Source of the DNA: Squalus acanthias
Taxonomy: Eukaryota
Length of the DNA stretch: 64,000 bases
Direction of reading: 5' to 3'
NCBI GenBank assembly: GCA_030390025.1
Contig: CM059430.1
Span: 68,200,001-68,264,000, forward strand
Shown: positions 13,656 through 43,300 of the stretch, in pieces
Layout: every line of letters begins with the position of its first letter
How positions within the stretch are numbered: the stretch's first letter is position 1
Notes under the pieces: model-generated
Told to the model about the DNA's origin: nothing
Database searches by the model: none
What the model saw: only the letters and a program-made list of their open reading frames with translations
Program-made: the position numbers and the translations under genes

Positions 13656-16600
13656 TAAACATAGAAACATAGAAGATAGGAGCAGAAGTAGTGTTGGGTG
13701 GGTAGTGTAATCTCCAGTCTACACTCACTGTGTTGGGTGGGTAGTTTAATCTCCAGCCCGCATTCACTCATTGTGTTGGGTGGATAGTGTAAACTCCAGC
13801 CCACACTCACTCACTGTGTTGGGTGTGTAATGTAATCTCCAGCCCGCACTCACTGTGTTGGGTGTGTAGTGTAATCTCCAGCCCGCACACAATCACTGTG
13901 TTGGGTGGGTTGTGTAATCTCCAGCCCGCACTCTCACCCTGTGTTGGGTGGGTAGTGAAATCTCCAGCCCACATTCACAGTGTTGGGTCGGTAGTGTAAT
14001 CTTCAGGCTGCACAAACTGAATGCGTTGGGTGGGTAGTGTAATCACCAGCCCGCACTCACTTACTGTGTTGGGTGGGTAGTGTAATCCCCAGCACGCACT
14101 CACTCACTGTGTTGGGTGGGTAGTGTAATCTCCAGCCCACACTCACTGTGTTGGGTCGGTAGTGTAACCTTCAGCCCGCACTCACTCACTGTGTTGGGTA
14201 GGTAGTGTAATCACCAGCCCGCACTCACGCACTGTGTTGGGTGGGTAGTGTAATCTCGAGCCCACACTCACCCACTGTGTTGGGGGGGTAGTGTAATCTC
14301 CAGGCCACACTCACTCACTGTGTTGGGTGGGGAGTGTAATCTCCAGCCCACACTCACTCACTGTGTTGGGTGGTCACTGTGTTGGGTGGGGAGTGTAATC
14401 TCCAGCCCACACTCACTCACTGTGTTGGGTGGGTAGTGTAATCTCCAGCCCACACTCACTGTGTTGGGTGGGTAGTGTAATCTCCAGGCCACACTCATTC
14501 ACTGTCTTGGGTGGGTAGTGTCATCCCCAGCCCACACTCAGTGTGTAGGGTGGGTTGTCTGATCTCCAGCCCGCACTCACTCACTGTGTTGGGTGGGTTG
14601 TGTAATCTCCTGTGCACTGACTGGATGTGTTGTGTGGGTAGAGTAATCTCCAGCCCACACACACTGTGTTGGGCGGGTAGTGTAATCTCCAGTCCACAAT
14701 CACTGTGTTGGGTGGTTAGTTTAATCTCCAGCCCGCACTCACTCATTGTGTTGGGTGGGCAGTGTAATCTCCAGCCCACACTCACTCACCGTGTTGGGTG
14801 GGTAATGTAATCTCCAGCCCGAACTCACTCATTGTGTTGGGTGGTAATGTAATCTCCAGCCCGTACTCACTGTGTTGGGTGTGTAGTGTAATCTCCAGCC
14901 CGCACACACTCACTGTGTTGGGTGGGTTGTGTAATCTCCAGCCCGCAATTCTCCCTGTGTTGGGTGGGTAGTGAAATCTCCAGCCCACATTCAATGTGTT
15001 GGGTCGGTAGTGTAATCTCCATGACGCACAAACTGAATGTGTTGTTTGGGTAGTAAAATCTCCAGCCCACACTCACTGTGTTGGGTCGATAGTGCAATCA
15101 TCAGCCCACACTCACTTACTGTGTTGGGTGGGTAGTGTAATCTCCAGCCCGCACTCACTCACTGTGTTTTGTGGGTAATCTAATCCCCAGCCCGCGCTCA
15201 CTCACTGTGTTGGGTGGGTAGTGTAATTTCCAGCCTACACTCACTCACTGTATTGGGTGGGTAGTGTAATCTCCAGCCCACACTCACTGTGTTGGATGGG
15301 TAGTGCAATCACCAGCCCACACTGACTGTGTTTGGTTTTTAGTGTAATCTCCAGCCCACAGTCAGTCACTGTGTTGGGTGGATAGTGTAATCTCCAGCCC
15401 GCACTCACTCACTGTGTTGGGTGGGTTGTGTAATCTCCAGCCAGCACTCACTCAGTGTGTTGGGTGGGTAGTGTAATCACCAGTCCACACTCACTCACTG
15501 TGTTGGGTCAGCAGTGTAATCTCCAACCCGCTATCAATCACTGTTGGGTGGGTAGTGTAATCTCCAGTCCACACTCACTGTGTTGGGTGGGTAGTTTAAT
15601 CTCCAGCCCGCACTCACTCATTGTGTTGGTTGGGTAGTGTAATGTCCAGCCCACACTCACTCACTGTGTTGGGTGGGTAATGTAATCTCCAGCCCGAACT
15701 CACTCATTGTTTTGGGTGGTAATGTAATTTCCTTCCCGCACTCACTGTGTTGGGTGTGTAGTGTAATCTCCAGCCTGCACACACTCACTGTGTTGGGTGG
15801 GTTGTGTAATCTCCAGCCCTCAATCTCTCCGTGTGTTGGGTGGGTAGTGAAATCTCCAGCCCACATTCACTGTGTTGGGTCGGTAGTGTAATCTCCAGGC
15901 CTCACAAACTGAATGTGTTGGGTGGGTAGTGTAATCTCCAGCCCGCAATCACTCACTGTGTTGGGTGGGTAGTGTAATCTCCAGCCCACACTCACTCACT
16001 GTGTTTGGTGGGTAGTGTAATCTCCAACCCATGCTCACTGTGTTTTGTGGGTAATCTAATCTCCAGCCCGGGCTCACTCACTGTGTTGTGTGGGTAGTGT
16101 AATCTCCAGCCCGCACTCACTCAGTGTGTTGGGTTGGTTGTGTAATCTCCTGCGCACTGACTGGATGTGTAGTGTGGGTAGTGTAATCTCCAGCCCACAC
16201 ACACTGTGTTGGGCGGGTAGTGCAATCACCAGCCCACACTGACTGTGTTTGGTTTTTAGTGTAATCTCCAGCCCGCACTCAGTCATTGTGTTGGGTGGGT
16301 AGTGTAATCTCCATCCCGCACTCACTCACTGTGTTGGGTGGGTTGTGTAATCTCCAGCCAGCACTCACTCAGTGTGTTGGGTGGGTAGTGTAATCACCAG
16401 TACACACTCACTCACTGTGTTGGGTTGGTAGTGTAATCTCCAACCCGCTATCAATCACTGTTGGGTGGGTAGTGTCATCTCCAGCCCACACTCACTGTGT
16501 TGGGTGGGTAGTGTAATCTCCAGCCCGCACTCACTGTGTAGGTTCGGTAGTGTAATCTTCAGCCCGCACTCACGCACTGTGTTGTGTAGGTACTGTAATC

Positions 16601-19600
16601 ACCAGCCCGCACTCACTCACTGTGTTGGGTGGGTAGTGTAATCTCCAGCCCACACTCACTCACTGTGTTGGGTGGGTAGTGTAATCTCCAGCCCACACTC
16701 ACTGTGTTGGGTGGGTAGTGTCATCTCCAGCCCACACTCACTCACTGTGTTGGGTGGGTAGTGTAATCTCCAGCCCGCACTCACTCACTGTGTTGGGTAG
16801 GTAATGTAATCTCCAGCCCACACTCAGTGTGTTGGGTGGGTTGTCTCATCTCCAGCCCGCACTCACTCACTGTGTTGGGTGGGATGTGTAATCTCCAGCC
16901 CGCAATGACTGAATGTGTTGTGTGGGTAGTTTAATCTCCAACCCGCTCTCTCTCACTGTTGGGTGGGTAGTGTAATCACCAGCCCACACTCACTGTGTTG
17001 GGTGGGTAGTTTATTCTCCAGCCCGCACTCACTCACTATTTTGTGTGGGTAGTGTAATCTCCAGCCCGCACTCACTGAATGTGTTTTGTGGGTTGTGTAA
17101 TCTCCAGCCCACACTCACTGTGTTGGGTCGGTAGTGTAATCTTCAGCCCGCACTCACTCACTGTGTTGGGTAGGTAGTGTAATCACCAGCCCGCACTCAC
17201 GCACTGTGTTGGGTGGGTAGTGTAATCTCGAGCCCACACTCACTCACTGTGTTTGGTGGGTCGTGTAATCTCCAGCCCACACACACTGTGTTGCGTGGGT
17301 TGTCTAATCTCCAGCCCGCACTCACTCACTATGTTGGGTGGGTTGTGTAATCTCCAGCCCGCACTGACTGAATGTGTTGTGTGTTTAGTGTAATCTCCAG
17401 CCCACACACACTGTGTTGGGCGGGTAGTGTAATCTCCAGTCCACTCTCACTGTGTTGGGTGGTTAGTTTAATATCCAGCCCGCACTCACTCATTGTGTTG
17501 GTTGGGTAGTGTAATGTCCAGCCCACACTCCCTCACTGTGTTGGGTGGGTAATGTAATCTCCAGCCTGAACTCACTCATTGTTTTGGGTGGTAATGTAAT
17601 TTCCAGCCCGCACTCACTGTGTTGGGTGTGTAGTGTAATCTCCAGCCCGCACACACTCACTGTGTTGGGTGGGTTGTGTAATCTCCAGCCCTCAATCTCT
17701 CCCTGTGTTGGGTGGGTAGGGAAATCTCCAGCCCACATTCACTGTGTTGGGTCGGTAGTGTAATCTCCAGGCCTCACAAACTGAATGTGTTGGGTGGGTA
17801 GTGTAATCTCCAGCCCGCAATCACTCACTGTGTTGGGTGGGTAGTGTAATCTCCAGCCCACACTCACTCACTGTGTTTGGTGGGTAGTGTAATCTCCAGC
17901 CCACGCTCACTGTGTTTTGTGGGTAATCTAATCTCCAGCCCGGGCTCACTCACTGTGTTGGGTGGGTAGTGTAATCTCCAGCCCACACTCAGTCACTGTG
18001 TTGTGTGGGTAGTGTAATCTCCAGCACGCACTCACTCAGTGTGTTGGGTTGGTTGTGTAATCTCCTGCGCACTGACTGGATGTGTTGTGTGGGTAGTGTA
18101 ATCTCCAGCCCACACACACTGTGTTGGGCGGGTAGTGTAATCTCCAGTCCACACTCACTGTGTTGGGTGGGCAGTGTAATCCCCAGCCCGCACTCACTCA
18201 CTGTGTTGGGTGGGTAGTGTAATCTCCAGTCCACACTCACTCACTGTGTTGGGTGGGTAATGTAATCTCCAGCCCGAACTCCCTCATTGTGTTGGGTGGT
18301 AATGTAATCTACAGCCCGTACTCACTGTGTTGGGTGTGTAGTGTAATCTCCAGCCCGCACAGACTCACTGTGTTGGGTGGGTTATGTAATCTCCAGCCCG
18401 CAATCTCTCCCTGTGTTGGGTGGGTAGTGAAATCTCCAGCCCACATTCACTGTGTTGGGTCGGTAGTGTAATCTCCAGGCCGCACAAACTGAATGTGTTG
18501 GGGGAGTAGTAAAATCTCCAGCCCACACTCACTGTGTTGGGTCGATAGTTGAATCACCAGCCCGCACTCACTGTGTTTTGTGTGTAATCTAATCCCCAGC
18601 CCGCGCTCACTCACTGTGTTGGGTGGGTAGTGTAATCTCCAGCCCACACTCACTGTGTTGGGTGGGTAGTGCAATCACCAGCCCACACTGACTGTGTTTG
18701 GTTTTTAGTGTAATCTCCAGCCCGCACTCAGTCACTGTGTTGGGTGGGTAGTGTAATCTCCAGCCCGCACTCACTCACTGTGTTGGGTGGGTTGTGTAAT
18801 CTCCAGCCAGCACTCACTCAGTGTGTTGGGTGGGTAGTGTAATCACCAGTACACACTCACTCACTGTGTTGGGTTGGTAGTGTAATCTCCAACCCGCTAT
18901 CAATCACTGTTGGGTGGGTAGTGTAATCTCCAGCCCACACTCACTGTGTTGGGTGGGTAGTGTAATCTCCAGCCCGCACTCACTGTGTAGGTTCGGTAGT
19001 GTAATCTTCAGCCCGCACTCACGCACTGTGTTGTGTAGGTACTGTAATCACCAGCCCGCACTCACTCACTGTGTTGGGTGGGTAGTGTAATCTCCAGCCC
19101 ACACTCACTGTGTTGGGTGGGTAGTGTCATCTCCAGCCCACACTCACTCACTGTGTTGGGTGGGTAGTGTAATCTCCAGCCCGCACTCACTCACTGTGTT
19201 GGGTAGGTAATGTAATCTCCAGCCCACACTCAGTGTGTTGGGTGGGTTGTCTCATCTCCAGCCCGCACTCACTCACTGTGTTGGGTGGGATGTGTAATCT
19301 CCAGCCCGCACTGACTGAATGTGTTGTGTGGGTAGTTTAATCTCCAACCCGCTCTCTCTCACTGTTGGGTGGGTAGTGTAATCACCAGCCCACACTCACT
19401 GTGCTGGGTGGGTAGTTTATTCTCCAGCCCGCACTCACTCACTATTTTGTGTGGGTAGTGTAATCTCCAGCCCGCACTAACTGAATGTGTTTTGTGGGTT
19501 GTGTAATCTCCAGCCCACGCTCACTGTGTTTTGTGGTAATCTAATCTCCAGCCCGGGCTCACTCAGTGTGTTGGGTGGGTAGTGTAATCTCCAGCCCACA

Positions 19601-20204
19601 CTCAGTCACTGTGTTGAGTGGGTAGTGTAATCTCCAGCCCGCACTCACTCAGTGTGTTGGGTTGGTTGTGTAATCTCCTGCGCACTGACTGGATGTGTTG
19701 TGTGGGTAGTGTAATCTCCAGCCCACACACAATGGGCCAGAAATTGATCTGGCTCTGTTCCCGCGGGTGTAAGGAGCAGGCGCGGTAATACATACCGCGT
19801 CTGCCGTTTCGTCTTTTCCACGGAGAAAATTCATCTTCTGGCTGATTGAGTGCAGGGCAGCGTATGACGTCACACTGCCCTGCAGCGCAGCGTGCGCGTT
19901 GCATCGCGTGCGATGTGGAGTGAAGACACGCCCATTAAGGTCTCTTTTCCATAGGCCACGCCCCCGATTTTTTTCTCCACTGAAACCATTGTACAGCTGC
20001 TGAAGACACAGTTTTCTCACTGTTTTAGGTGGAATTTGCAGTAAGTAGGATTTAAATGCATGGTTTTGTAAACTTTTAAAGATTTTTAGTATAATTTGAG
20101 TAATGTTAAACATTTGCAAAGAGATTTAAAGTAATTTAAATAGTTTTAAAAGCACAGAAATCATTTTTTTCAGAGATTTAACTGTTTATAATCAGCAAAC
20201 GAAA

Positions 20205-20861
20205 ATGGCTGCTATCAGCACTATCCAATTTATCAAAAGAACACAGAATTTCAGTGATGATGATCTCCGTACACTTCTTGACGAGGTAGAATCGAAACGT
20301 TCACGGATAATTGGAACTCAGAAGTCCAAGCCGCCGCGAAAAGGCCAAATGGCAGCGTGTAAAGAGGTTGCTCAAAGTGTGAGCGCAACCTCGACCATTC
20401 CACGTACAGCTGAGCAATGTCGCAAAAAATTCAGCGATTTATATCGAACGCTGAAGGTTTGTATAGTTATAACAAAAGTCAATGTTAAAATGTCTTAACA
20501 TTTAAAATGAAAAGCCTTGAAAAAGTGTTTGTTTGCTAAGCTGAGTTAACTGAAGTCACAAGATGCTCCCATAAATTTTTATGGCTTTTGTAGCCAGGCA
20601 AGTCTCATAAAATGCTAATGTCATCTTGATTGAAATGCTTTGAGTTGCTTACTGAGTCCTCTTGAAGGACTGTTGCAGAAACCCAATGTGGAAGTGCAGC
20701 TTAGTAAAATAAATGAGTCTCTTGAAGGACTCATGCGAATAATTTCTGCTGCAATTACTGTGACTCCATCAGAACCAACCTTACCTGCTCCCAGCGCAGA
20801 ATCAGTGCAGGTCCAAGAGCCACCAACGATGATGCAATCAAGAAAGCGCAAGAGACGTTAG
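20205..20861 (+). pseudogene. Harbinger A Myb/SANT-like DNA-binding gene (exon 1 20205-20456; C-terminal piece about 20640-20861)
   Basis: RTQNFSDDDLRTLLDEV...ACKEVAQSVS...RTAEQCRKKFSDL; donor AAG|gtttgt at the same position as the intron in element B; conserved W appears as C; middle exon not found; ends in basic RKRKRR. Confidence 0.75.
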
Positions 20862-21360
20862 GGTGTTGCATGTTCCACAATGCACATCCATTGACCCTCA
20901 GGAATAGTTTATTTGTGGTTAAATTTTTCAAGTGTTTAATTTTTAGTTTTATTTAAAACTTACATGTTTACATTTTTCTTTATTTATATATATATTTGAC
21001 ACTGAAACTGAAAGTTAGCTTTTCATTGAAAAAGTACAGCCTTTAGTCACTTTATAAAAATTCAAATTGTTTATTTTCACAAAAAAATTGAACATTTAAA
21101 CTTGTTTACATTTAGGAAAGAGTTATTTCCCATCTTGAATGTCTTTACTGCATTAACGAAGCAAAAAAGTTACTGAGAACTGTTAACAAATTTTTAAAAA
21201 ACCTATTTCTGTTTACGATTGTTTACAAAGTTGAAAAGTAGCTAGTTAACATTGAAAAGTTATAAACTATGTAAAGCAACAATGAACCTCAGAAGTCTGT
21301 AATGCTGCAATAAAAGAGCACTGTTTCACTTTAAATTGTGTCTGTACCTTTATTTGCCTT

Positions 21361-21541
21361 NNNNNNNNNNNNNNNNNNNNNNNNNNNNNNNNNNNNNNNN
21401 NNNNNNNNNNNNNNNNNNNNNNNNNNNNNNNNNNNNNNNNNNNNNNNNNNNNNNNNNNNNNNNNNNNNNNNNNNNNNNNNNNNNNNNNNNNNNNNNNNNN
21501 NNNNNNNNNNNNNNNNNNNNNNNNNNNNNNNNNNNNNNNNN
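21361..21541. other. Assembly gap (N run) inside Harbinger A
   Basis: N run. Confidence 1.
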
Positions 21542-21545
21542 GACA

Positions 21546-22696
21546 CTACCTCGTGAAGGTGTTGGCTACCAGCTGCTCCCGAGCAGCCTTACTTTGAGCA
21601 GCAGTTGGCTCTTCCCCATCATGCCTTCCCACAGGCACATTGGCATTGTCCACGTCCTCCATTTCTGCAGGTAGTTCATCTGCAGCGTTAAGGGTCAGTC
21701 CTTCCTGCAGGGCAAAGTTATGCAAAGCACAACAGGCCACCACAATCTTTGCCACTTTCTGAGGAGAATACTGCAAGGTCCCCCCTGACCTGTCCAGGCA
21801 CCGGAAGCGTGATTTCAGAACTCCAATTGTCCTCTCCACCACTTGCCGTGTGGACACGTGTGCCTGGTTGTATCTCTCCTGAGCCTCATTATTGGTCTTG
21901 CGGTAGGGAGTCATCAGCCATGGTCTTAGCGGGTAGCCCTTGTCGCCCAATATCCATGCGGATCCTGGAGGCAATGCGTTGAGGACGCCATATAAGTCAG
22001 AGTTACGGAGGACGAAGGAGTCATGATTACTTCCACGGTTACCTGCATTCACATTTAAGATCCTGAGATGCGCATCACAGACAATCTGGACATTCAGTGA
22101 ATGAAACCCCTTCCTGTTGATAAATGTCACAGGTGCAACCCTGGTGCCTTCAATGCTACATGGGTTCCATCGACAGCCCCAATCACTTTGGGGAATCCAG
22201 CAATGTTATGAAATGCAAGCGCCATCTCCTTTTGATGGCGAGCAGACAAGTCATACTTAATGAACTCAGAAGCCCTACGGAAAATGGCTTCTGTGACCTG
22301 GTGAATGCAGGCCCTCGCAGCATTCTTGGATATGTTGCAAATGTCACCGGTGCTTGCCTGAAAAGTCCCACTTGCAAAGAAGTTCAGTGCTGTGGTTACC
22401 TTCATGCTCAGTGACAATGCATTGCGGTTCTTCGTGCGTGTTTGAAGGTCCTCCTTTAACATCTCACAGATTCGGCCAATTGACTCTTTACTGAAGCGCA
22501 GCCTCCTCACACACAGCTCCTCCGACAGCATCTCAAATGACAGCCTCTGCCTGTACACTCTATTTGGTGGGTAGTAGTTTCTCCTTCTCTGGAGGAGACG
22601 GGCTTGGATCCTCCGTCTGATTAGTTGTCTGTATTCGAAAATTCTCAGATACGCAATCCCACAGAGGAGGAACAGGAATCGATTGCAAAAGGGCAT
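21546..22696 (-). pseudogene. Harbinger A DDE transposase (HARBI1-family) with one frameshift near 22135
   Basis: ORFs 22127..22696 and 21546..22130 join by a 1-nt shift (ALKAPG/APVTFINRKG); motifs AVDGTH, NRKGFHSLNVQ, HDS, GDKGY, VVERTIGVLKSRFRCL, CCALHN. Confidence 0.92.
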
Positions 22697-25600
22697 CTTT
22701 CTCTCACACAGGCTTCCTCCTCAAACTGAAAGTTGTAATGAAAAAATGGAAATAGTTGTTAAAGTAACTTTAGTTAAGTGAGTGGCTATAAAATCAGGTC
22801 AGGCTATGGTGGGATACGTGCGCTATCAGCTTGGGAACACATCTACCCGCCACACGGCCCTAGCTGATTTTCCAAAACTGTAACATTTTCATAAATTCAT
22901 ACATACATACATACATACTTACTTACTTACTCATTTTCATCTTTAAAACTTTTTGAAACGTAAACAGTTCATTTTTAAACTTTCATTTTCACAGATAGAT
23001 ACCTAAATATGCCTTGTACACACCCACAGTTGCTATACTACTCCAAATGGTCAAAACCCGTTTTAAAATTTTTTTTTTAAAACTCTTAACTTATATAAGA
23101 CTTCATTTAAAACTTTTGTGTCTTTCAGATTTAAAAAACTCACCTCAGTAGCCACACTCCCAAAGGATTTCTTCCTCCTACTATCTCGGTAAATGTATAA
23201 ATGGCTGCTGCTCCTGGTTTTAAAATGTGTAACTGCTAGGAGCTTACACACACTACTCTCATTCACAAAATACATGAATTTTCTGACGCACGCGCAGAAT
23301 CACCAGCCCACGCGATTACTCGCATATCCATGAAACTGACCAGACATGAAGTGCCGGTTTTCAGCGCATGCGCAGTGCATGCAGAAAACCGGCAATTGCA
23401 GAGGGAATACGCGAGTGTACGCAGTGCGTACTCTCGCGCACCAGGATGAATTTTTGGGCCACTGTGTTGGGCGGGTAGTGTAATCTCCAGTCCACACTCA
23501 CTGTGTTGGGTGGGCAGTGTAATCTCCAGCCCACACTCACTCACAGTGTTGGGTGGGTAATGTCATCTCCAGCCCGAACTCACTCATTGTGTTGGGTGGT
23601 AATGTAATCTACAGCCCGTACTCACTGTGTTGGGTGTGTAGTGTAATCTCCAGCCCGCACACACTCACTGTGTTGGGTGGGTTGTGTAATCTCCAGCCCG
23701 CAATCTCTCCCTGTGTTGGGTGGGTAGTGAAATCTCCAGCCCACATTCACTGTGTTGGGTCGATAGTGTAATCACCAGCCGGCACTCACTTACTGCGTTG
23801 GGTGGGTAGTGTAATCTCCAGCCCGCACTCACTCACTGTGTTGGGTGGGTAGTGTAATCTCCAGCCCGCACTCACTCACTGTGTTGGGTGGGTAGTGTAA
23901 ATCCAGCCCGCGCTCACTGGGTTTTGTGGGAAATCTAATCCCCAGCCCGCGCTCACTCACTGTGTTGGGTGGGTAGTATAATCTCCAGCCCACACTCATT
24001 CACTGTGTTGGGTGGGTAGTGTAATCTCCAGCCCACACTCACTGTGTTGGGTGGGTAGTGCAATCACCAGCCCACACTGACTGTGTTTGTTTTTTAGTGT
24101 AATCTCCAGCCCACACTCAGTCACTGTGTTGGGTGGGTTGTGTAATCTCCAGCCAGCACTCACTCAGTGTGTTGGGTGGGTAGTGTAATCACCAGTCCAC
24201 ACTCACTCACTGTGTTGGGTCGGTAGTGTAATCTCCAACCCGCTATCAATCATTGTTGGGTGGGTAGTGTAATCTCCAGCCCACACTCACTGTGTTGGGT
24301 GGGTAGTGTAATCTCCAGCCCGCACTCACTGTGTTGGTTCGGTAGTGTAATCTTCAGCCCGCACTCACGCACTGTGTTGGGTAGGTACTGTAATCACCAG
24401 CCCGCACTCACTCAGTGTGTTGGGTGGGTAGTGTAATCTCCAGCCCACACTCACTCATTGTTTTGGGTGGGTTGTGTAATGTCCAGCCCACACTCACTGT
24501 GTTGGGTGGGTAGTGTCATCTCCAGCCCACACTCACTCACTGTGTTGAGTGGGTAGTGTAATCTCCAGACCGGACTCACTCACTGTGTTGGGTAGGTAAT
24601 GTAATCTCCAGCCCACACTCAGTGTGTTGGGTGGGTTGTCTCATCTCCAGCCCGCACTCACTCACTGTGTTGGGTGGGTTGTGTAATCTCCAGTCTGCAC
24701 TCACTCAGTGTGATGGGTCGGTAGTGTAATCTCCAACCCGCTCTCTCTCACTGTTGGGTGGGTAGTGTAATCTCCAGTCCGCACTCACTCACTGTGTTGG
24801 GTGTGTAGTTTATTCTCCAGCCCGCACTCACCCACTATTTTGTGTGGGTAGTGTAATCTCCAGCCCGCACTCACTGAATGTGTTGGGTGGGTAGTGTAAT
24901 CTCCAGCCCGCACTCACTCACTGTGTTTGGTGGGTAGTGTAATCTCCAGCCCGCGCTAACTGTGTTTTGTGGGTAGTGTAATCTCCAGCCTGCGCTCACT
25001 GTGTTTTGTGGGTAATCTAATCTCCAGCCCGCGCTCACTCACTGTGTTGGGTGGGTAGTGTAATCTCCAGCCCACACTCAGTCACTGTGTTGGGTGGGTA
25101 GTGTAATCTCCAGCCCGCACTCACTGACTGTGTTGGGAGGGTAGTGTAATCTCCAGCCCACACTCACTCACTGTGTTGGGTGGGAAGTGCAATCTCCAGC
25201 CCGCACTCACTCACTGTGTTTGGTGGGTAGTGTAATCTCCAGCCCGCACTCAATCTGTTTTGTGGGTCATCTAATCTCCAGCCCGCGCTCACTCACTGTG
25301 TTGGGTGGGTAGTGTAATCTCCAGCCCACACTCACTCACTGTGTAGGGTGGGTAGTGTAATCTCCAGTCCGCACTGACTGAATGTGTTTTGTGGGTAGTG
25401 TAATCTCCAGCCCACACTTACTCACTGTGTTGGGTGGGTAGTGCAATCTCCAGCCCGCACTCACTCACTGTGTTTGGTGGGTAGTGTAATCTCCAGCCCG
25501 CGCTCACTCTGTTTTGTGGGTAAACTAATCTCCAGCCCGCGCTCACTCACTGTGTTGGGTCGGTAGTGTAATCTTCAGCCCGCACACACTCACTGTGTTG

Positions 25601-28600: not shown

Positions 28601-29945
28601 TGTGTGGGTAGTTTAATCTCCAACCCACACTCACTGTGTTGGGTGGGTAGTGTAATCTCCAGTCCGCACTCACTCACTGTGTTGGGTGGGTTGTGTAATC
28701 TCCAGTCTGCACTCACTCAGTGTGATGGGTCGGTAGTGTAATCTCCAACCCGCTCTCTCTCACTGTTGGGTGGGTAGTGTAATCTCCAGTCCGCACTCAC
28801 TCACTGTGTTGGGTGTGTAGTTTATTCTCCAGCCCGCACTCACCCACTATTTTGTGTGGGTAGTGTAATCTCCAGCCCGCACTGACTGAATGTGTTTTGT
28901 GGGTTGTGTAATCTCCAGCCCGCACTCACTGTGTTGGGTGTGTAGTGTAATCTCCAGCCCGCACACACTCACTGTGTTGGGTGGGTTGTGTAATCTCCAG
29001 CCCTCAATCTCTCCCTGTGTTGGGTGGGTAGTGAAATCTCCAGCCCACATTCACTGTGTTGGGTCGGTAGTGTAATCTCCAGCCCTCACAAACTGAATGT
29101 GTTGGGTGGGTAGTGTAATCTCCAGCCCGCACTCACTCACTGTGTTGGGTGGGTAGTGTAATCTCCAGCCCGCACTCACTCACTGTGTTTGGTGGGTAGT
29201 GTAATCTCCAGCCCGCGCTCACTGTGTTTTGTGGGTAGTGTAATCTCCAGCCCGCGCTCACTGTGTTTTGTGGGTAATCTAATCTCCAGCCCGCGCTCAC
29301 TCACTGTGTTGGGTGGGTAGTGTAATCTCCAGCCCACACTCAGTCACTGTGTTGGGTGGGTAGTGTAATCTCCAGCCCGCACTCACTGACTGTGTTGGGT
29401 GGGTAGTGTAATCTCCAGCCCACACTCAGTCACTGTGTTGGGTGGGTAGTGTAATCTCCAGCCCGCGCTCACTCACTGTGTTCGTTGGGTAGTGTAATCT
29501 CCAGCCCACACTCAGTCACTGTGTTGGGTGGGTAGTGTAATCTCCATCCCACACTCACTCACTGTGCTGGGTGGGTAGTGCAATCTCCAGCCCGCACTCA
29601 CTCACTGTGTTTTGTGCGTCATCTAATTTCCAGCCCGCGCTCACTCACTGTGTTTGGTGGGTAGTGTAATCTCCAGCCCACACTCACTCACTGTGTTGGG
29701 TGGGTAGTGCAATCTCCAGCCCGCACTCACTCACTGTGTTTGGTGGGTAGTGTAATCTCCAGCCCGCGCTCACTCTGTTTTGTGGGTAATCTAATCTCCA
29801 GCCCGCGCTCAATCACTGTGTTGGGTCGGTAGTGTAATTTTCAGCCCGCACTCACTCACTGTGTTGGGTAGGTAGTGTAATCACCAGCCCGCACTCACGC
29901 ACTGTGTTGGGTGGGGAGTATAATCTCCAGCCCACACTCACTCAC

Positions 29946-30128
29946 TGTGGTAACACTTTTCAGCTTCCTGTATGACATCACTTCCTGTAATCAGTCCAGG
30001 ATAAATACTGGACTGATCAGTTAGCTCTGGAAGAGGCATAGGGTAAGACCTCTTTTGTATGCAGCACCGTTTTAAGTTGATTAAAGCTTACATTAAGTTT
30101 ACCACGCGTAAGGCTCATTCTTACGACA
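29946..30128 (+). repeat. Gypsy 5' LTR (183 bp)
   Basis: tgtggtaac...cttacgaca; TATA-like ATAAATA 30001-30007; ATTAAA 30080-30085. Confidence 0.97.
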
Positions 30129-30207
30129 ATTTAATCAACTTTTGAAAAACTTCGCACTCAAACTTTTTGGACGAACTCGGAGCTAAGGATCCAGGGAATC
30201 ACCCATC

Positions 30208-33200: not shown

Positions 33201-34164
33201 GACAACCACGGTTATCAGCTGCCTTGAACAGGTATTTGCTTTCTGTGGCATGGCATCCTATGTTCATTCAGATCGGGGCCCTTCTTTTATGTCGGGAGAA
33301 CTCAAGGCCTATCTCTCGGAACGGGGTATTGCTGCCAGCAAAACGACGCCTTATCATCCGGTTGGGAATGGGCAAGTCGAGCGTTTTAACGCTATCATCT
33401 GGAATGCGGTACGTCTGGCTTTGAGATCTCGGGGCCTACCCAACCAGCATTGGGAAGCAGTACTTCCAGACGCATTACACTCCACACGGTCCCTCCTTTC
33501 GACCGCCACAAATACGACGCCTCATGAACGGTTCTTCCGATTTCAGCGTCGCTCATCCTATGGGACATCTCTCCCGTCGTGGCTGACTGCACCGGGACCA
33601 GTGCTACTCCGAAGATATGTCCGGGCGTCTAAGAATGACCCCCTGGTAGATGAGGTGGAGCTCACTGACGTCAACCCTACCTACGCCTATATTCGGTATC
33701 CTGACGGTCGGGAATCTACCGTGTCATTGCGGGATCTGGCTCCCTGCCCGCCGAAACATAGAGGGACACCAGGGGATGATATTGTACCAGGCACATCTCT
33801 GGGCTTGCCAGGTGCCTCTCATCATGATCGGGATCTGACGCCGGCTGGTACCTCACTCCAGCGTGCCGACCTGGGGCAGACTGACTATGAGCCCGTCGGG
33901 GCTCGCACGCGCAGCCACGATCAACCCTGTACCGTACGCTCAGAAACGGATCTGCCACAGCCCTGCCCGACACCCATTCGGGTACCAGTACACAGTCAGG
34001 ATCGTTCTGACCCCTCACAGAGCGGGCTGGAGCACTCGGACTCTGGTCCATGGCCCGCAGCGGGTAAACGGGCTAGGGGCCCTCTACCGCTACGAGAACC
34101 CAAACGGGTGCGGCTCTCCCTCATCCAACGGCTACGAAATGGAGGGAGCATTCCGGCCTCCTAA
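30208..34164 (+). CDS. Gypsy Gag-Pol polyprotein, 1318 aa (Gag with 2 CCHC, protease, RT, RNase H, integrase)
   Basis: CFFCGDEFHPRRFC and CSHCNKKGHFVKVC; LIDSGS; DLKSAYHQ, LPFG, YLDN; VECDAS, EKEA, TDQ; H-x4-H..C-x2-C, IDFKGP, SDRG, GQVER; domain order PR-RT-RH-IN. Confidence 0.97.
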   Translation: MENILKPSRLDLDPNTPAAGKVWKHWYRTFENFLEYCKADDNSKLRILINCVTPNVFQYVEDWDSYEEAIQTLKRLYTKTPNEVYARHLLATAQQGPEESIDKFLQELRRLSMDCNFRAASAELYREEMIRDAFICGLASPFIRQRLLESKTLELQRAYDLACSLDLAKRNADLFTVPRPRSAALTTVRQFKRPQVNSIREDFIPDDRSDDFTDEEDDDPTVAASWQSKKCFFCGDEFHPRRFCPARNAFCSHCNKKGHFVKVCLSRASTRAYQAKSYRTAPVRAYQDVPTKNYRASSRVFSRRNTPRISATLCATTPITAACPQNLFHAATKASIKGHTLDALIDSGSTDSFIREQTVAQLKLHVFPSDQAVAMAQSSLNTRISGFCVVEIMLKGHRYPSTRLSVLKDLCSDLILGLDFQKQHKKLTIEFGGSKPELTISNIRPRLPFCALSAASLDEPSLFASIPPRCKPIITKSRRFSQEDQSFIAAEISRLLAEDIIEPCSSPWRAQVVIVKNPLQPHKKRLCIDYSQTINQYTDLDAYPLPRIDDMVNKLAEYTVFSTYDLKSAYHQVPLKVSDKQYTAFEANGRLYQFRRLPFGVTNGVAVFQRAMDDLVKQEDLKDTFPYLDNITVAGRNQQEHDANLQRFWDALQHRNLTLNAAKSIESQPTINILGYCVGNGIIKPDPERLRPLQELPPPKNPASLRRALGLFAYYAKWIPNFSDRIQPLLKASTFPLDTTAVAAFNLLKKQLEKAALHSIDESLPFVVECDASEVAISATLNQEGRPVAFLSRTFQGAELHYPPVEKEATAIIEAVRKWSHLLARQHFTLITDQRSVAFMLDNRKRTKIKNNKIQLWRLELASFGYTIHYRPGKENVAPDTLTRAFCSAMAPSTLVDIHDGLCHPGVTRMLHFVRSRNLPFSTGDVKKMCSDCRVCAELKPRFFRPSGGILIHATQPMQRLSIDFKGPLPSSTRNTYLLTMVDEYSRFPFAFPCPNMLTTTVISCLEQVFAFCGMASYVHSDRGPSFMSGELKAYLSERGIAASKTTPYHPVGNGQVERFNAIIWNAVRLALRSRGLPNQHWEAVLPDALHSTRSLLSTATNTTPHERFFRFQRRSSYGTSLPSWLTAPGPVLLRRYVRASKNDPLVDEVELTDVNPTYAYIRYPDGRESTVSLRDLAPCPPKHRGTPGDDIVPGTSLGLPGASHHDRDLTPAGTSLQRADLGQTDYEPVGARTRSHDQPCTVRSETDLPQPCPTPIRVPVHSQDRSDPSQSGLEHSDSGPWPAAGKRARGPLPLREPKRVRLSLIQRLRNGGSIPAS

Positions 34165-34183
34165 TCTTTTGGGGGGGGGAGAA

Positions 34184-34366
34184 TGTGGTAACACTTTTCA
34201 GCTTCCTGTATGACATCACTTCCTGTAATCAGTCCAGGATAAATACTGGACTGATCAGTTAGCTCTGGAAGAGGCATAGGGTAAGACCTCTTTTGTATGC
34301 AGCACCGTTTTAAGTTGATTAAAGCTTACATTAAGTTTACCACGCGTAAGGCTCATTCTTACGACA
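34184..34366 (+). repeat. Gypsy 3' LTR (183 bp)
   Basis: Identical to 29946-30128; preceded by a G-run plus AGAA polypurine tract. Confidence 0.97.
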
Positions 34367-37300
34367 CTCACTGTGTTGGGTGGGTCGTGTAATCTCCAGC
34401 CCACACTCACTGTGTTGCGTGGGTTGTCTAATCTCCAGCCCGCACTCACTCACTATGTTGTGTGTTTAGTGTAATCTCCAGCCCACACACACTGTGTTGG
34501 GCGGGTAGTGTAATCTCCAGTCCACACTCACTGTGCTGGGTGGGTAGTTTAATCTCCAGCCCGCACTCACTCATTGTGTTGGTTGGGTAGTGTAATATCC
34601 AGCCCACACTCACTCAATGTGTTGGGTGGGTAATGTCATCTCCAGCCCGAACTCACTCATTGTGTTGGGTGGTAATGTAATTTCCAGCCCGCACTCACTG
34701 TGTTCGGTGTGTAGTGTAATCTCCAGCCCGCACACACTCACTGTGTTGGGTCGGTTGTGTAATCTCCAGGCCTCACAAACTGAATTGTTGGGTGGGTAGT
34801 GTAATCTCCAGCCCGCAGTCACTCACTGTGTTGGGTGGGTAATGTAATCTCCAGCCCACACTCACTCATTGTGTTGGGTGGGTAGTGCAATCTCCAGCCC
34901 GCACTCACTCACTGTGTTTGGTGGGTAGTGTAATCTCCAGCCCGCGCTCACTGTGTTTTGTGGGTAATCTAATCTCCAGCCCGCGCTCACTCACTGTGTT
35001 GGGTGGGTAGTGTAATCTCCAGCCCACACTCACTCACTGTGTTGGGTGGTTAGTGTAATCTCCTGCCCACACTGACTGTGTTGGGTGGGTAGTGCAATCA
35101 CCAGCCCACACTCACGGTGTTTCGTGGGTAGTGTAATCTCCAGCCCACACTCAGTCACTGTGTTGGGTGGGTAGTGTAATCTCCAGCCCGCACTCACTCA
35201 GTGTGTTTGGTGGGTAGTGTAATCACCAGCCCACACTCACTAACTGTGTTGGCTCGGTAGTGTAATCTCCAACCCGCTATCACTCACTGTGTTGGGTGGG
35301 TAGTTTATTCTCCAGCCCACACTCACTCACTGTTTTGTGTGGCTAGTGTAATCTCCAGCCCGAACTGACTGAATGTGTTTTGTGGGTAATGTAATCTCCA
35401 GCCTAAACTCACTGTGTTGGGTGGGTCGTGTAATCTCCAGCCCACACTCACTGTGTTGGGTCGGTAGTGTAATCTTTAGCCCGGAATCATTCACTGTGTT
35501 GGGTAGGTAGTGTAAACACCAGCCCACAATCACTCACTGTGTTGGGTGGGGAGTGCAATCTCCAGCCCACACTCACTCACTGTGTTGGGTGGGTAGTGTA
35601 ATCTCCAGCCCACAATCACTCACTGTGTTGGGTGGGGTGTGCAATCTCCAGCCCACACTCACTCACAGTGTTGGGTGGGTAGTGTAATCACCAGCCCACA
35701 CTCACTCACTGTTTTGGTTAGTAGCGTAATCTCCAGCCCACACTCACTGTGTTGGGTGGTTAGAGTCATCTCCAGCCCCCACTCACTCACTGTGTTGGGT
35801 GGGTAGTGTAATCTTCAGCCCGCACTCACTCACTGTGTTGTGTGGGTAATGTAATCTCCTGCCCACACTCAGCGTGTTGGGTGGGTTGTCTCATCTCCAG
35901 CCCGCACTCACTTACTGTGTTGTGATGGTTGTGTAATCTCCAGCCCGCACTGACTGAATGTGTTGTGTGGGTAGTGTAATCTCCAGCCCAGACACACTGT
36001 GTTGGGCGGGTATTGTAATCTCCAGTCCACACTCACTGTGTTGGGTGGGTAGTTTAATCTCCAGCCCGCACTCACTGTGTTGGGTGGGTAGTGTAATCTC
36101 CAGCACGCACTCACTGTGTTGGGTGGGTAGTTTATTCTCCAGTCCGCACTCACTCACTATTTTGTGTGGGTAGTGTAATCTCCAGCCCGCACTGACTGAT
36201 TGTGTTTTGTGGGTTGTGTCATCTCCAGCCCACACTCACTGTGTTGGGTCGGTAGTGTAATCTTCAGCCCGCACTCACTCACTGTGTTGGGTAGGTAGTG
36301 TAATCACCAGCCCGCACTCACGCACTGTGTTGGGTGGGTAGTGTAATCTCCAGCCCACACTCACTCACTGTGTTGGGTGGGTAGTGTAATCTCCAGCCCA
36401 CACTCACTGTGTTGCGTGGGTTGTGTAATCTCCAGCCCGCATTGACTGAATGTGTTGTGTGTGTAGTGTAATCTCCAGCCCACACACACTGTGTTGGGCG
36501 GGTAGTGTAATCTCCAGTCCACACTCACTGTGTTGGGTGGGTAATGTTATCTCCAGCCCGAACTCACTCATTGTGTTGGGTGGTAATGTAATCTCCAGCC
36601 CGCACTCACTGTGTTGGGTGTGTAGTGTCATCTCCAGCCCGCACACACTCACTCTGTTGGATGGGTTGTGTAATCTCCAGCCCGCAATCTCTCCCTGTGT
36701 TGGGTGGGTAGTGAAATCTCCAGCCCACATTCACTGTGTTGGGTGGGTAGTGTAATCTCCAGCCCGCACTCACTCACTGTGTTGGGTGGGTAGTGTAATC
36801 TCCACCCCACACTCACTCACTGTGTTGGGTGGGTAATGTAATCTCCAGCCCACACTCACTGTGTTGCGTGGGTTGTCTAATCTCCAGCCCGCACTCACTC
36901 ACTATGTTGGGTGGGTTGTGTAATCTCCAGCCCGCACTGACTGAATGTGTTGTGTGTTTCGTGTAATCTCCAGCCCACACACACTGTGTTGGGCGGGTAG
37001 TGTCATCTCCAGTCCACACTCACTGTGTTGGGTGGGTAGTTTAATCTCCAGCCCGCACTCACTCATTGTGTTGGTTGGGTAGTGTAATGTCCAGCCCACA
37101 CTCACTCACTGTGTTGGGTGGGTAATGTAATCTCCAGCCCGAACTCACTCATTGTTTTGGGTGGTAATGTAATTTCCAGCCCGCACTCACTGTGTTGGGT
37201 GTGTAGTGTAATCTCCAGCCCGCACACACTCACTGTGTTGGGTGGGTTGTGTAATCTCCAGCCCTCAATCTCTCCCTGTGTTGGGTGGGTAGTGAAAACT

Positions 37301-40300
37301 CCAGCCCACATTCACTGTGTTGGGTCGGTAGTGTAATCTCCAGGCTTCACAAACTGAATGTGTTGGGTGGGTAATCTAATCTCCAGCCCGGGCTCACTCA
37401 CTGTGTTGGGTGGGTAGTGTAATCTCCAGCCCACACTCAGTCACTGTGTTGTGTGGGTAGTGTAATCTCCAGCCCGCACTCACTCAGTGTGTTGGGTTGG
37501 TTGTGTAATCTCCTGCGCACTGACTGGATGTGTTGTGTGGGTAGTGTAATCTCCTGCCCACACACACTGTGTTGGGCGGGTAGTGTAATCTCCAGTCCAC
37601 ACTCACTGTGTTGGGTGGGCAGTGTAATCTCCAGCCCACACTCACTCACAGTGTTGGGTGGGTAATGTCATCTCCAGCCCGAACTCACTCATTGTGTTGG
37701 GTGGTAATGTAATCTACAGCCCGTACTCACTGTGTTGGGTGTGTAGTGTAATCTCCAGCCCGCACACACTCACTGTGTTGGGTGGGTTGTGTAATCTCCA
37801 GCCCGCAATCTCTCCCTGTGTTGGGTGGGTCGTGAAATCTCCAGCCCACATTCACTGTGTTGGGTCGATAGTGTAATCACCAGCCGGCACTCACTTACTG
37901 CGTTGGGTGGGTAGTGTAATCTCCAGCCCGCACTCACTCACTGTGTTGGGTGGGTAGTGTAATCTCCAGCCCGCACTCGCTCACTGTGTTGGGTGGGTAG
38001 TGTAATCTCCAGCCCGCACTCACTCACTGTGTTGGGTGGGTAGTGTAATCTCCAGGCCGCACTCACTCACTGTGTTGGGTGGGTAGTGTAATCTCCAGCC
38101 CGCACTCACTCACTGTGTTGGGTGGCTAGTGTAATCTCCAGCCCGCACTCGCTCACTGTGTTGGGTGGGTAGTGTAATCTCCAGCCCGCACTCACTCACT
38201 GTGTTGGGTGGGTAGTGTAATCTCCAGCCCGCACTCACTCACTGTGTTGGGTGGGTAGTGTAATCTCCAGCCCGCACTCACTCACTGTGTTGGGTGGGTA
38301 GTGTAATCTCCAGCCCGCACTCGCTCACGGTGTTTGGTGGGTAGTGTAAATCCAGCCCGCGCTCACTTGGTTTTGTGGGAAATCTAATCCCCAGCCCGCG
38401 CTCACTCACTGTGTTGGGTGGGTAGTGTAATCTCCAGCCCACACTCATTCACTGTATTGGGTGGGTAGTGTAATCTCCAGCCCACACTCACTGTGTTGGG
38501 TGGGTAGTGCAATCACCAGCCCACACTGACTGTGTTTGTTTTTTAGTGTAATCTCCAGCCCACACTCAGTCACTGTGTTGGGTGGGTCGTGTAATCTCCA
38601 GCCCGCACTCACTCAATGTGTTGGGTAGGTAGTGTAATCTCCAGCCCGCACTCACTCAGTGTGTTGGGTGGGTAGTGTAATCACCAGTCCACAGTCACTC
38701 ACTGTGTTGGGTAGGTAGTGTAATCTCCAACCCGCTATCAATCACTGTTGGATGGGTAGTGTAATCTTCAGCCCGCACTCACGCACTGTGTTGGGTAGGT
38801 ACTGTAATCACCAGCCCGCACTCACTCACTGTGTTGTGTAGGTAATGTAATCTCCAGCCCACACTCAGTGTGTTGGGTGGGTTGTCTCAACTCCAGCCCG
38901 CACTCACTCACTGTGTTGGGTGGGTAGTGTAATCTCCAGCCCGCACTCACTCACTGTTTTGGGTGGGTAGTGTAATCTCCAGCCCACACTCACTGTGTTG
39001 GGTGGGTAGTGTCATCTCCAGCCCACACTCACTCACTGTGTTGAGTGGGTAGTGTAATCTCCAGACCGCACTCACTCACTGTGTTGGGTAGGTAATGTAA
39101 TCTCCAGCCCACACTCAGTGTGTTGGGTGGGTTGTCTCATCTCCACCACCCACTCACTCACTGTGTTGTGTGGGTTGTGTAATCTCCAGCCCGCACTGAC
39201 TGAATGTGTTGTGTGGGTAGTTTAATCTCCAGCCCACACTCACTGTGTTGGGTGGGTAGTGTAATCTCCAGCCCACACTCACTGTGTTGGGTGGGTAGTG
39301 TAATCTCCAGTCCGCACTCACTCACTGTGTTGGGTCGGTAGTGTAATCTCCAACCCGCTCTCTCTCACTGTTGGGTGGGTAGTGTAATCTCCAGCCCGCA
39401 CTCGCTCACTGTGTTGGGTGGGTAGTGTAATCTCCAGCCCGCACTAACTGAATCTGTTGGGTGGGTAGTGTAATCTCCAGCCCGCACACACTCACTGTGT
39501 TGGGTGGGTAGTGTAATCTCCAGCCCGCACTCACTCACTGTGTTGGGTGGGTAGTGTAATCTCCAGCCCGCACTCGCTCACTGTGTTGGGTGGGTAGTGT
39601 AATCTCCAGCCCGCACTCACTCACTGTGTTGGGTGGGTAGTGTAATCTCCAGCCCGCACTCACTCACTGTGTTGGGTGGGTAGTGTAATCTCCAGCCCGC
39701 ACTCACTCACTGTGTTGGGTGGGTAGTGTAATCTCCAGCCCGCACTCGCTCACGGTGTTTGGTGGGTAGTGTAAATCCAGGCCGCGCTCACTGGGTTTTG
39801 TGGGAAATCTAATCCCCAGCCCGCGCTCACTCACTGTGTTGGGTGGGTAGTGTAATCTCCAGCCCACACTCATTCACTGTATTGGGTGGGTAGTGTAATC
39901 TCCAGCCCACACTCACTGTGTTGGGTGGGTAGTGCAATCACCAGCCCACACTGACTGTGTTTGTTTTTTAGTGTAATCTCCAGCCCACACTCAGTCACTG
40001 TGTTGGGTGGGTCGTGTAATCTCCAGCCCGCACTCACTCAATGTGTTGGGTAGGTAGTGTAATCTCCAGCCCGCACTCACTCAGTGTGTTGGGTGGGTAG
40101 TGTAATCACCAGTCCACAGTCACTCACTGTGTTGGGTAGGTAGTGTAATCTCCAACCCGCTATCAATCACTGTTGGATGGGTAGTGTAATCTTCAGCCCG
40201 CACTCACGCACTGTGTTGGGTAGGTACTGTAATCACCAGCCCGCACTCACTCACTGTGTTGTGTAGGTAATGTAATCTCCAGCCCACACTCAGTGTGTTG

Positions 40301-43300
40301 GGTGGGTTGTCTCAACTCCAGCCCGCACTCACTCACTGTGTTGGGTGGGTAGTGTAATCTCCAGCCCGCACTCACTCACTGTTTTGGGTGGGTAGTGTAA
40401 TCTCCAGCCCACACTCACTGTGTTGGGTGGGTAGTGTCATCTCCAGCCCACACTCACTCACTGTGTTGAGTGGGTAGTGTAATCTCCAGACCGCACTCAC
40501 TCACTGTGTTGGGTAGGTAATGTAATCTCCAGCCCACACTCAGTGTGTTGGGTGGGTTGTCTCATCTCCACCACCCACTCACTCACTGTGTTGTGTGGGT
40601 TGTGTAATCTCCAGCCCGCACTGACTGAATGTGTTGTGTGGGTAGTGTAATCTCCAGCCCACACTCACTGTGTTGGGTGGGTAGTGTAATCTCCAGCCCA
40701 CACTCACTGTGTTGGGTGGGTAGTGTAATCTCCAGTCCGCACTCACTCACTGTGTTGGGTCGGTAGTGTAATCTCCAACCCGCTCTCTCTCACTGTTGGG
40801 TGGGTAGTGTAATCTCCAGCCCGCACTCGCTCACTGTGTTGGGTGGGTAGTGTAATCTCCAGCCCGCACTAACTGAATCTGTTGGGTGGGTAGTGTAATC
40901 TCCAGCCCGCACACACTCACTGTGTTGGGTGGGTAGTGTAATCTCCAGCCCGCACTCACTCACTGTGTTGGGTGGGTAATGTAATCTCCAGCCCGCACTC
41001 ACTCACTGTGTTGGGTGGGTAGTGTAATCTCCAGCCCGCACTCACTCACTGTGTTGGGTGGGTAGTGTAATCTCCAGCCCGCACTCACTCACTGTGTTGG
41101 GTGGGTAGTGTAATCTCCAGCCCGCACTCGCTCACGGTGTTTGGTGGGTAGTGTAAATCCAGGCCGCGCTCACTGGGTTTTGTGGGAAATCTAAGCCCCA
41201 GCCCGCGCTCACTCACTGTGTTGGGTGGGTAGTGTAATCTCCAGCCCACACTCACTCACTGTGTTGGGTGGGTAGTGTAATCTCCAGCCCACACTCACTG
41301 TGTTGGGTGGGTAGTGCAATCACCAGCCCACACTGACTGTGTTTGTTTTTTAGTGTAATCTCCAGCCCACACTCAGTCACTGTGTTGGGTGGGTCGTGTA
41401 ATCTCCAGCCCGCACTCACTCACTGTGTTGGGTAGGTAGTGTAATCTCCAGCCCGCACTCACTCAGTGTGTTGGGTGGGTAGTGTAATCACCAGTCCACA
41501 GTCACTCACTGTGTTGGGTAGGTAGTGTAATCTCCAACCCGCTATCAATCACTGTTGGGTGGGTAGTGTAATCTCCAGCCCACACTCACTGTGTTGGTTC
41601 GGTAGTGTAATCTTCAGCCCGCACTCACGCACTGTGTTGGGTAGGTACTGTAATCACCAGCCCGCACTCACTCACTGTGTTGGGTAGGTAATGTAATCTC
41701 CAGCCCACACTCAGTGTGTTGGGTGGGTTGTCTCATCTCCAGCCCGCACTCACTCACTGTGTTGGGTGGGTAGTGTAATCTCCAGCCCGCACTCACTCAC
41801 TGTTTTGGGTGGGTAGTGTAATCTCCAGCCCACACTCACTGTGTTGGGTGGGTAGTGTCATCTCCAGCCCACACTCACTCACTGTGTTGAGTGGGTAGTG
41901 TAATCTCCAGAACGCACTCACTCACTGTGTTGTGTAGGTAATGTAATCTCCAGCCCACACTCAATGTGTTGGGTGGGTTGTCTCATCTCCAGCCCGCACT
42001 CATTCACTGTGTTGGGTGGGTTGTGTAATCTCCAGCCCGCACTTACTGAATGTGTTGTGTGGGTAGTTTAATCTCCAGCCCACACTCACTGTGTTGGGTG
42101 GGTAGTGTAATCTCCAGCCCACACTCACTGTGTTGGGTGGGTAGTGTAATCTCCAGTCCGCACTCACTCACTGTGTTGGGTCGGTAGTGTAATCTCCAAC
42201 CCGCTCTCTCTCACTGTTGGGTGGGTAGTGTAATCTCCAGTCCACACTCACTCACTGTGTTGGGTGTGTAGTTTATTCTCCAGCCCGCACTCACCCACTA
42301 TTTTGTGTGGGTAGTGTAATCTCCAGTCCGCACACACTCACTGTGTTGGGTGGGTTGTGTAATCTCCAGCCCGCACTCACTGTGTTGGGTGTGTAGTGTA
42401 ATCTCCAGCCCGCACACACTCACTGTGTTGGGTGGGTAGTGAAATCTCCAGCCCACATTCACTGTGTTGGGTCGGTAGTGTAATCTCCAGCCCTCACAAA
42501 CTGAATGTGTTGGGTGGGTAGTGTAATCTCCAGCCCGCACTCACTCACTGTGTTTGGTGGGTAGTGTAATCTCCAGCCCGCGCTCACTGTGTTTTGTGGG
42601 TAATCTAATCTCCAGCCCGCGCTCACTCACTGTGTTGGGTGGGTAGTGTAATCTCCAGCCCACACTCACTGTGTTGTGTGGGTAGTGTAATCACCAGCCC
42701 ACACTCACTGTGTTGGGTGGGTAGTCTAATCTCCAGCCCACACTCACTGTGTTGGGTGGGTAGTGTAATCTCCAGCCCACACTCAGTCACTGTGTTGGGT
42801 GGGTAGTGTAATCTCCAGCCCACACTCAGTCACTGTGTTGGGTGGGTAGTGTAATCTCCAGCCCACACTCAGTCACTGTGTTGGGTGGGTAGTGTAATCT
42901 CCAGCCCACACTCACTGTGTTGTGTGGGTAGTGTAATCTCCAGCCCACACTCACTGTGTTGGGTGGGTAGTGTAATCTCCAGCCCACACTCAGTCACTGT
43001 GTTGGGTGGGTAGTGTAATCTCCAGCCCACACTCACTCACTGTGTTGGGTGGGTCGTGTAATCTCCAGCCCACACTCACTCACTGTGTTGGGTGGGTAGT
43101 GCAATCTCCAGCCCGCACTCACTCACTGTGTTTGGTGGGTAGTGTAATCTACAGCCCGCGCTCACTCTGTTTTGTGGATAATCTAATCTCCAGCCCGCGC
43201 TCACTCACTGTGTTGGGTGGGTAGTGTAATCTCCAGCCCACACTCACTCACTGTGTTGGGTGGGTCGTGTAATCTCCAGCCCACACTCACTGTGTTGCGT

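Follow-up and report, generated by a model that had tools for sequence, protein, structure and literature searches.

A derived minisatellite variant of Squalus acanthias that very probably mimics a 23-bp-spacer recombination signal sequence by chance

Genomes of jawed vertebrates hold cryptic recombination signal sequences (RSSs), counted in the 'millions' in the available text of PMC5203794. Such sites present a heptamer, a spacer and a nonamer outside a rearranging locus and arise from the low complexity of the signal (available parts of PMC5203794 and PMC12711392). The terminal inverted repeats of Transib and RAG transposons likewise combine a CAC heptamer, a 23-bp spacer and an A-rich nonamer, with Transib ends reading CACAATG + 23 bp + AAAAAAATC in the accessible portion of PMC1131882. 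Eight sites of this make-up lie in a 39/43-bp minisatellite of Squalus acanthias, within a 64,000-bp stretch of assembly GCA_030390025.1 (contig CM059430.1, positions 68,200,001 to 68,264,000; hereafter the window). Unlike known cryptic RSSs, they are located within a minisatellite monomer, have been multiplied by higher-order duplication and are known from sequence alone. Unlike Transib ends, they stand in a head-to-tail tandem array without paired inverted ends or a transposase, and their A-tract appears to be derived. With the real RSSs of this genome they share a perfect heptamer, intact nonamer positions A5-A7 and a T at nonamer position 3 (present in 5 of 45 real nonamers). The real signals differ in abutting YYC or FGxG coding ends and in having diverse spacers, whereas the array sites have neither a coding flank nor a 12/23 partner; in addition, 38 of 45 real RSSs have C at nonamer position 8, where all eight array sites have A. 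The sites are very probably a neutral minisatellite variant that forms a chance cryptic RSS and has been multiplied by higher-order duplication. They appear not to qualify as bona fide RSSs or as Transib ends.

The minisatellite comprises 542 monomers between 13691 and 48989, in four segments interrupted by two Harbinger elements and one Gypsy element (Table 1). Its monomers run head to tail, and variants reappear at a set position within larger blocks that have themselves been duplicated. Re-reading the sequence recovered all eight sites, on the minus strand, and their original description as near-consensus 23-RSSs with intact CAC and nonamer A5 and A6 was borne out in 8/8. The heptamer starts with CAC in every case and is perfect in seven, and a nonamer with A5 and A6 follows a 23 ± 1 bp spacer in all eight. 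At the first three sites (15335, 16252 and 18701), CTAAAAACC is also available at a 24-bp spacer (7/9). All eight occupy a single higher-order slot with identical neighbours. Block identity was measured for two pairs: the 24090 and 26343 sites fall within a 2,253-bp duplication (97% identity over 1 kb), and the 38539 and 39964 sites within a 1,425-bp duplication (99.7% over 1 kb). Given the shared neighbours and the 97-99.7% identity of the duplicated blocks, the eight sites count as one event, and the original prediction was right to caution that they are not independent.

The same prediction offered two origins for the A-tract, ancestral or a striking convergence. The family to which the array belongs numbers 1,460 exact 30-base cores genome-wide, in arrays at 67.09-68.35 Mb of contig C6 (on both strands), on C169, C262 and C2889, and in further places. 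We decomposed 4,078 monomers from nine array groups on four contigs, which together hold 997 of the 1,460 exact cores. The consensus core, GGGTGGG, is identical in 9/9 arrays. The GGG>TTT change in the second run, with an intact downstream core, was found at 21 places genome-wide, eight here and 13 on C169, and among the decomposed arrays at least four G>T changes occur only in the window array (9 monomers) and on C169 (13). C262 and C2889, the most homogeneous arrays (1.5-1.9% divergence), show at most one G>T in the core of any monomer. One array consists mostly of 39-mers (322/450) and has a 19-bp spacing, and array edges are without the A-tract. The C169 array has the same second-Harbinger junctions as the window and is therefore a sister or allelic array.

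A block tree of 24 slot neighbourhoods with a consensus outgroup, in which the G-tract was masked, was uninformative because of recombination, and polarity therefore rests on distribution. On that basis the A-tract variant appears to be derived and of single origin, not ancestral. Its confinement to two sister arrays is the distribution of a recent derived tip, although the block tree itself gave no order. The copy at C169:49187 was considered as an ancestral intermediate and set aside, its flanks being identical to those of a full T-tract copy and a back-change being likelier. The GGG-intact slot copies at 35113 and 48494 could be recombinants too. As for the array itself, a paralogue at 75.53 Mb of C6 matches the window at 94% identity as far as 13691 and from there goes on with the CR1 3' end, which abuts the array in the window and runs on unbroken in the paralogue; no satellite was present in the 20 kb read there, and two other close paralogues lack the array (0 and 1 core hits). 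The array came to the locus after the neighbouring gene unit had been duplicated, the copies being about 94% identical.

The resemblance can be traced to the monomer. The reverse complement of the heptamer, CACTGTG, is part of the minisatellite unit (359 copies on the plus strand of the window). The 43-mer equals the 39-mer with one extra TCAC, a 4-bp slippage that changes the spacing from 19 to 23 bp and brings the preceding monomer's second GGG run to nonamer positions 5-7 of the 23-bp register. An ordinary 43-mer offers ACTACCCAC at the place of the nonamer (4/9), and the A-tract is what results when all three G of the second run in GGGTGGG become T. G>T is the commonest change in the window array (303 of 1,323 differences across 541 monomers), and adjacent substitutions cluster, with 25 distinct runs of at least three in 1,057 distinct monomer cores. 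One monomer acquired GGG>TTT, presumably by ordinary G>T mutation and recombination between monomers. Unequal exchange copied the variant-bearing block to eight places here and to 12 decomposed monomers in the C169 sister array. A separate lineage reached ACTAAACAC (6/9) at the 19-bp, non-RSS spacing.

Dinucleotide shuffles of the sequence gave 0 such sites; this is the wrong control, because the heptamer is in the monomer and the eight sites share one slot. Within the window array, 11 of the 39 spacer lengths tried gave the true nonamer at least 7/9 (spacer 30 gave 8/9), and when the nonamer letters were permuted, 60 of 84 orders scored at least 7/9 at spacer 23, both controls being conditional on the existing A-tract. 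Genome-wide, CACAGTG+23+ACAAA occurs at 1,591 sites compared with 732 for a reversed control, and the matches listed include a 20-bp satellite on contig C1 and a dispersed repeat. Nor was there a trace of selection for the signal. Among 21 decomposed copies of the lineage, the heptamer is perfect in 12, CAC is lost in four and the nonamer has drifted to ACTGAAAAA in nine. Copies in the C169 sister array lose CAC or move off the nonamer, and CAC positions vary as much as other monomer positions among distinct cores. The A-tract variant appears to be unselected.

CA-rich satellites elsewhere in the genome mimic RSSs as well or better. One is an unrelated 44-bp satellite at 467594-473357 of C3751, the usual monomer of which reads CACAGTG + 12 + ACACAATCC (7/9). 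It is, like the window array, a CA-rich shark satellite with an RSS-mimicking monomer and no immunoglobulin (Ig) domain found nearby (60 kb gave neither a V nor a C1 match), but on C3751 the typical monomer reaches 7/9, as opposed to a rare variant in the 39/43-bp array. Of its 372 heptamers, 153 are accompanied by a 12-RSS-like signal, and a single copy forms a perfect 12-RSS whose first 15 bases match a light-chain V RSS on C75. Shorter arrays of this satellite lie near 455.7, 460.2 and 493.8 kb. Given the clustered changes and these other mimics, 'striking convergence' overstates the case. The ancestral half of the original alternative is not supported by the distribution set out above.

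Real signals were recovered from the same genome. Its nine perfect 12-RSSs are on C75, C911 and C3751, and eight of them are at real V or J segments. C75 carries a light-chain-like V-12RSS and J-23RSS, and C911 (676-720 kb) a T-cell receptor alpha-like J cluster of 45 segments with 12-RSSs, both labels having been read from flanking peptides. The C911 J nonamers end in CT almost as often as in CC. A stretch at 60-130 kb of C3243 was rejected as an RSS locus: it contains C1 exons only (at least 21, in repeating units), with no RSS in 70 kb. This run is possibly, as a guess, a UrIg2-like multi-domain gene.

We scored the array nonamers against a simple position profile built from the genome's own J segments (45 nonamers; a donor site and CAC accompanied 45 of 47 FGxGT motifs). 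The profile comes from 12-RSSs, the real 23-RSSs recovered amounting to one. ACTAAAAAA scored 5.9 bits, above only one of the 45 real nonamers, a misregistered one. ACTAAAAAC falls in the low tail of the real nonamers, so its three copies are credible cryptic RSSs. For mouse RAG, ACTAAAAAC and ACTAAAAAA are absent from the top 1000 predicted nonamers in Table S2 of PMC12711392, and CTAAAAACC stands at row 462 of that table; CTAAAAACC is also the Pax3 cryptic nonamer in a 12-RSS assay with mouse RAG in the available part of PMC9723617. On balance, we would expect the three ACTAAAAAC copies to support weak plasmid recombination above a scrambled control, a result that would show only a cryptic RSS.

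The heptamers are flanked by the next monomer and not by a V, D or J coding segment, and V exons in the vicinity already include J. Heptamer-flank frames read by eye gave LGG-stop, WVGSVISS and GWVV-stop, with no FGxG or WGxG; WVGSVISS, considered as a J-like peptide, was rejected for lack of WGxG. The 12-RSS partners that were to be sought in flanking sequence were found neither in the monomers (no 12-spacer nonamer of at least 6/9 among 3,419 CAC-intact monomers) nor in the window. In 362 kb of non-satellite flank there are four weak 12-RSS sites (6/7+6/9), none inside the window, and C6 carries no perfect 12-RSS; the partner search read 58 to 194 kb around the window, a part of the cluster described below. 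No signal-joint-like junction at the sites was seen in the assembly. Each array is head to tail in one orientation, without paired inverted termini. A strict search, which weak matches may escape, returned a single RAG1-family (PF12940) match, an intact RAG1 gene on C10. No Transib-like transposase was found near the array, and the transposases of the window are of the Harbinger type. The array junctions seen are not heptamer-precise. In a check for a 5-bp target duplication, the left junction proved to overlap CR1 by GTAG, away from any heptamer, and the right end is N. With no flanking gene segment and no partner signal, the sites are most likely accidental look-alikes. They would not take part in antigen-receptor assembly, and RAG probably cannot reach them in vivo.

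Several observations weigh against a neutral origin by chance. If changes were independent, about 0.05 triple G>T changes would be expected among the 1,057 distinct cores outside the lineage, which makes the A-tract a mildly lucky event. No parent sequence of the monomer was matched in 681 kb of masked sequence, the arrays with the remaining 463 of the 1,460 exact cores were screened by pattern only and not decomposed, and the block tree, scrambled by recombination, did not resolve the order of changes within the slot. ACTAAAAAC, at 8.6 bits, scores at or above five of the 45 real J-segment nonamers, the same number as have the position-3 T; only one of 1,917 heptamer-like flank sites reaches the score of ACTAAAAAA. 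Lastly, immune-receptor genes form a cluster around the array. Part of this evidence would fit a variant of chance origin that RAG now actively cuts in lymphocytes or germ cells, with occasional deletions or inversions in the cluster of VJ-C1 genes. Nonamer quality within the low tail of real ones, the three copies of CTAAAAACC at a 24-bp spacer (available parts of PMC9723617 and PMC12711392), the germ-cell Ig rearrangement reported in sharks (available text of PMC2193156) and the oppositely oriented arrays about 100 kb away are all compatible with it. We nevertheless consider it unlikely: there is no nearby 12-RSS partner, no signal joint in the assembly and no heptamer-precise array junction, neither main nonamer is in the top-1000 table, and RAG targeting follows H3K4me3 (as given in the accessible part of PMC5203794), which we would not expect on satellite DNA. 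A broader version, in which shark satellite turnover keeps making RAG-grade signals (23-type here, 12-type on C3751) that are occasionally cut and reshape the VJ-C1 cluster, is very unlikely.

It is still harder to credit that a real 23-RSS or a Transib/RAG-transposon end gave rise to the satellite by amplification, with the A-tract ancestral and GGGTGGG derived. Heptamer, spacer and nonamer do make up 39 of the long monomer's 43 bases, the ends of Transib are similar, as described above, and the array lies among unsplit VJ genes, the kind considered to have received the RAG transposon (available text of PMC12227049). The limitation of the variant to two sister arrays and one slot speaks against this, as do the GGG consensus of every array, the mostly-39-mer array, the A-tract-free array edges, the lack of an inverted partner end and the intact C10 gene as the sole RAG1-family match of the strict search. 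Selection for an effect unrelated to RAG, by breaking G-quadruplex-prone GGGTGGG runs or altering nucleosome phasing, has next to no credibility. Each monomer does have two GGG runs on the G-rich strand, and G>T reaches 0.057 per site in GGG runs against 0.043 at other G, but this excess is small and the variant makes up 21 of 4,078 monomers. A neutral variant resembling an RSS by chance is the reading that we retain.

Table 1. Positions of the RSS-like sites, array segments, inserted elements and neighbouring gene in the window (ORF, open reading frame; LTR, long terminal repeat)
Feature	Position	Strand	Description
RSS-like variant 1	15335..15373	-	CACAGTG + 23 + ACTAAAAAC, 7/9
RSS-like variant 2	16252..16290	-	CACAATG + 23 + ACTAAAAAC, 7/9
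RSS-like variant 3	18701..18739	-	CACAGTG + 23 + ACTAAAAAC, 7/9
RSS-like variant 4	24090..24128	-	CACAGTG + 23 + ACTAAAAAA, 6/9
RSS-like variant 5	26343..26381	-	CACAGTG + 23 + ACTAAAAAA, 6/9
RSS-like variant 6	38539..38577	-	CACAGTG + 23 + ACTAAAAAA, 6/9
RSS-like variant 7	39964..40002	-	CACAGTG + 23 + ACTAAAAAA, 6/9
RSS-like variant 8	41346..41384	-	CACAGTG + 23 + ACTAAAAAA, 6/9
Minisatellite array segment 1	13691..19733	+	On the left, joins a CR1 3' end through a GTAG overlap
Minisatellite array segment 2	23461..29945	+	39/43-bp monomers
Minisatellite array segment 3	34367..43876	+	39/43-bp monomers
Minisatellite array segment 4	48080..48989	+	Runs into N stretch, right end unseen
Slot monomer with second GGG run intact	35113..35155	+	Second such copy at 48494-48536
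Harbinger DNA transposon	19734..23460	-	DDE_Tnp_4 and Myb/SANT ORF; inserted at ACT within CACTGTG
Second Harbinger transposon	43877..48079	+	Inserted at ACT of CACTGTG; identical junctions in C169
Ty3/Gypsy LTR retrotransposon	29946..34366	+	1,325-aa ORF; 183-bp LTRs 100% identical; target duplication CTCAC
Non-rearranging VJ-C1 gene	4519..9349	+	Leader, VJ exon, C1 exon, Arg-bearing transmembrane exon, short tail; 288 aa
VJ-C1 gene exons	Single VJ exon 4727-5038; C1 exon 7598-7906	+	

Distinct Harbinger elements have inserted at the same ACT in the monomer CACTGTG (window, C169 and C6 67.15/67.26 Mb). A relative of the Gypsy element, 94-96% identical and in the opposite orientation, occupies another site in the C169 array. 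Further tandem repeats surround the array: a 38-bp minisatellite forms an array of more than 20 kb at about 68.286-68.31 Mb of C6, and its unit adjoins the right end of several 39/43-bp arrays, the words AATCTC and CACTCAC being common to both. A 15-bp tandem repeat lies at 51292-52418 of the window and a 67-bp tandem repeat at 9529-10110, the latter accompanying the VJ-C1 gene unit in three paralogues.

The VJ-C1 gene upstream of the array has no RSS in or beside it. The only two homologues returned are from Heterodontus (73%) and Mustelus (61%), with the automatic database label 'immunoglobulin lambda-1 light chain-like'. A solved-structure search with the horn-shark homologue gave generic V-C1 matches only (antibody chains, CD276, UrIg2). 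The transmembrane arginine of the gene product may be likened to NKp30, and its C1 domain to SIRP; VJC1 genes were reportedly treated by Ohta et al. in 2019. The gene belongs to a cluster at about 61-77 Mb of C6, for which we found 120 V matches (115 on C6), 106 of them extending through the J strand, and well over 100 C1 matches. Split V genes were considered and rejected for 13 of the 14 short V matches, all but a C2 match: each is a damaged VJ exon (frameshifted, deleted or partly duplicated) with no RSS after V. The cluster is likely a large innate-type receptor family. PMC12227049 and PMC10751288 discuss unsplit VJ genes, in passages that do not describe the C6 cluster. The literature searched yielded no description of the cluster and no paper about the minisatellite or about shark satellites that resemble RSSs; it left out most subscription journals and does not establish absence from print.

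In the most likely case the array sites carry little weight, being one more cryptic RSS and a warning that CA-rich shark satellites mimic RSSs, together with the caution that a shuffle null is the wrong control inside repeats. If RAG did cut the array sites, tandem repeats would supply recombination signals in amplified form within an immune-receptor cluster. Were satellite turnover to keep supplying such signals, satellite-born signals would be a route to new rearranging substrates without a transposon, given germ-cell RAG activity. More interesting than the look-alikes is the cluster of more than 100 unsplit VJ-C1 genes around the array. Independently of them, an unsplit VJ-C1-transmembrane cluster bears on the search for relatives of the gene into which the RAG transposon moved.

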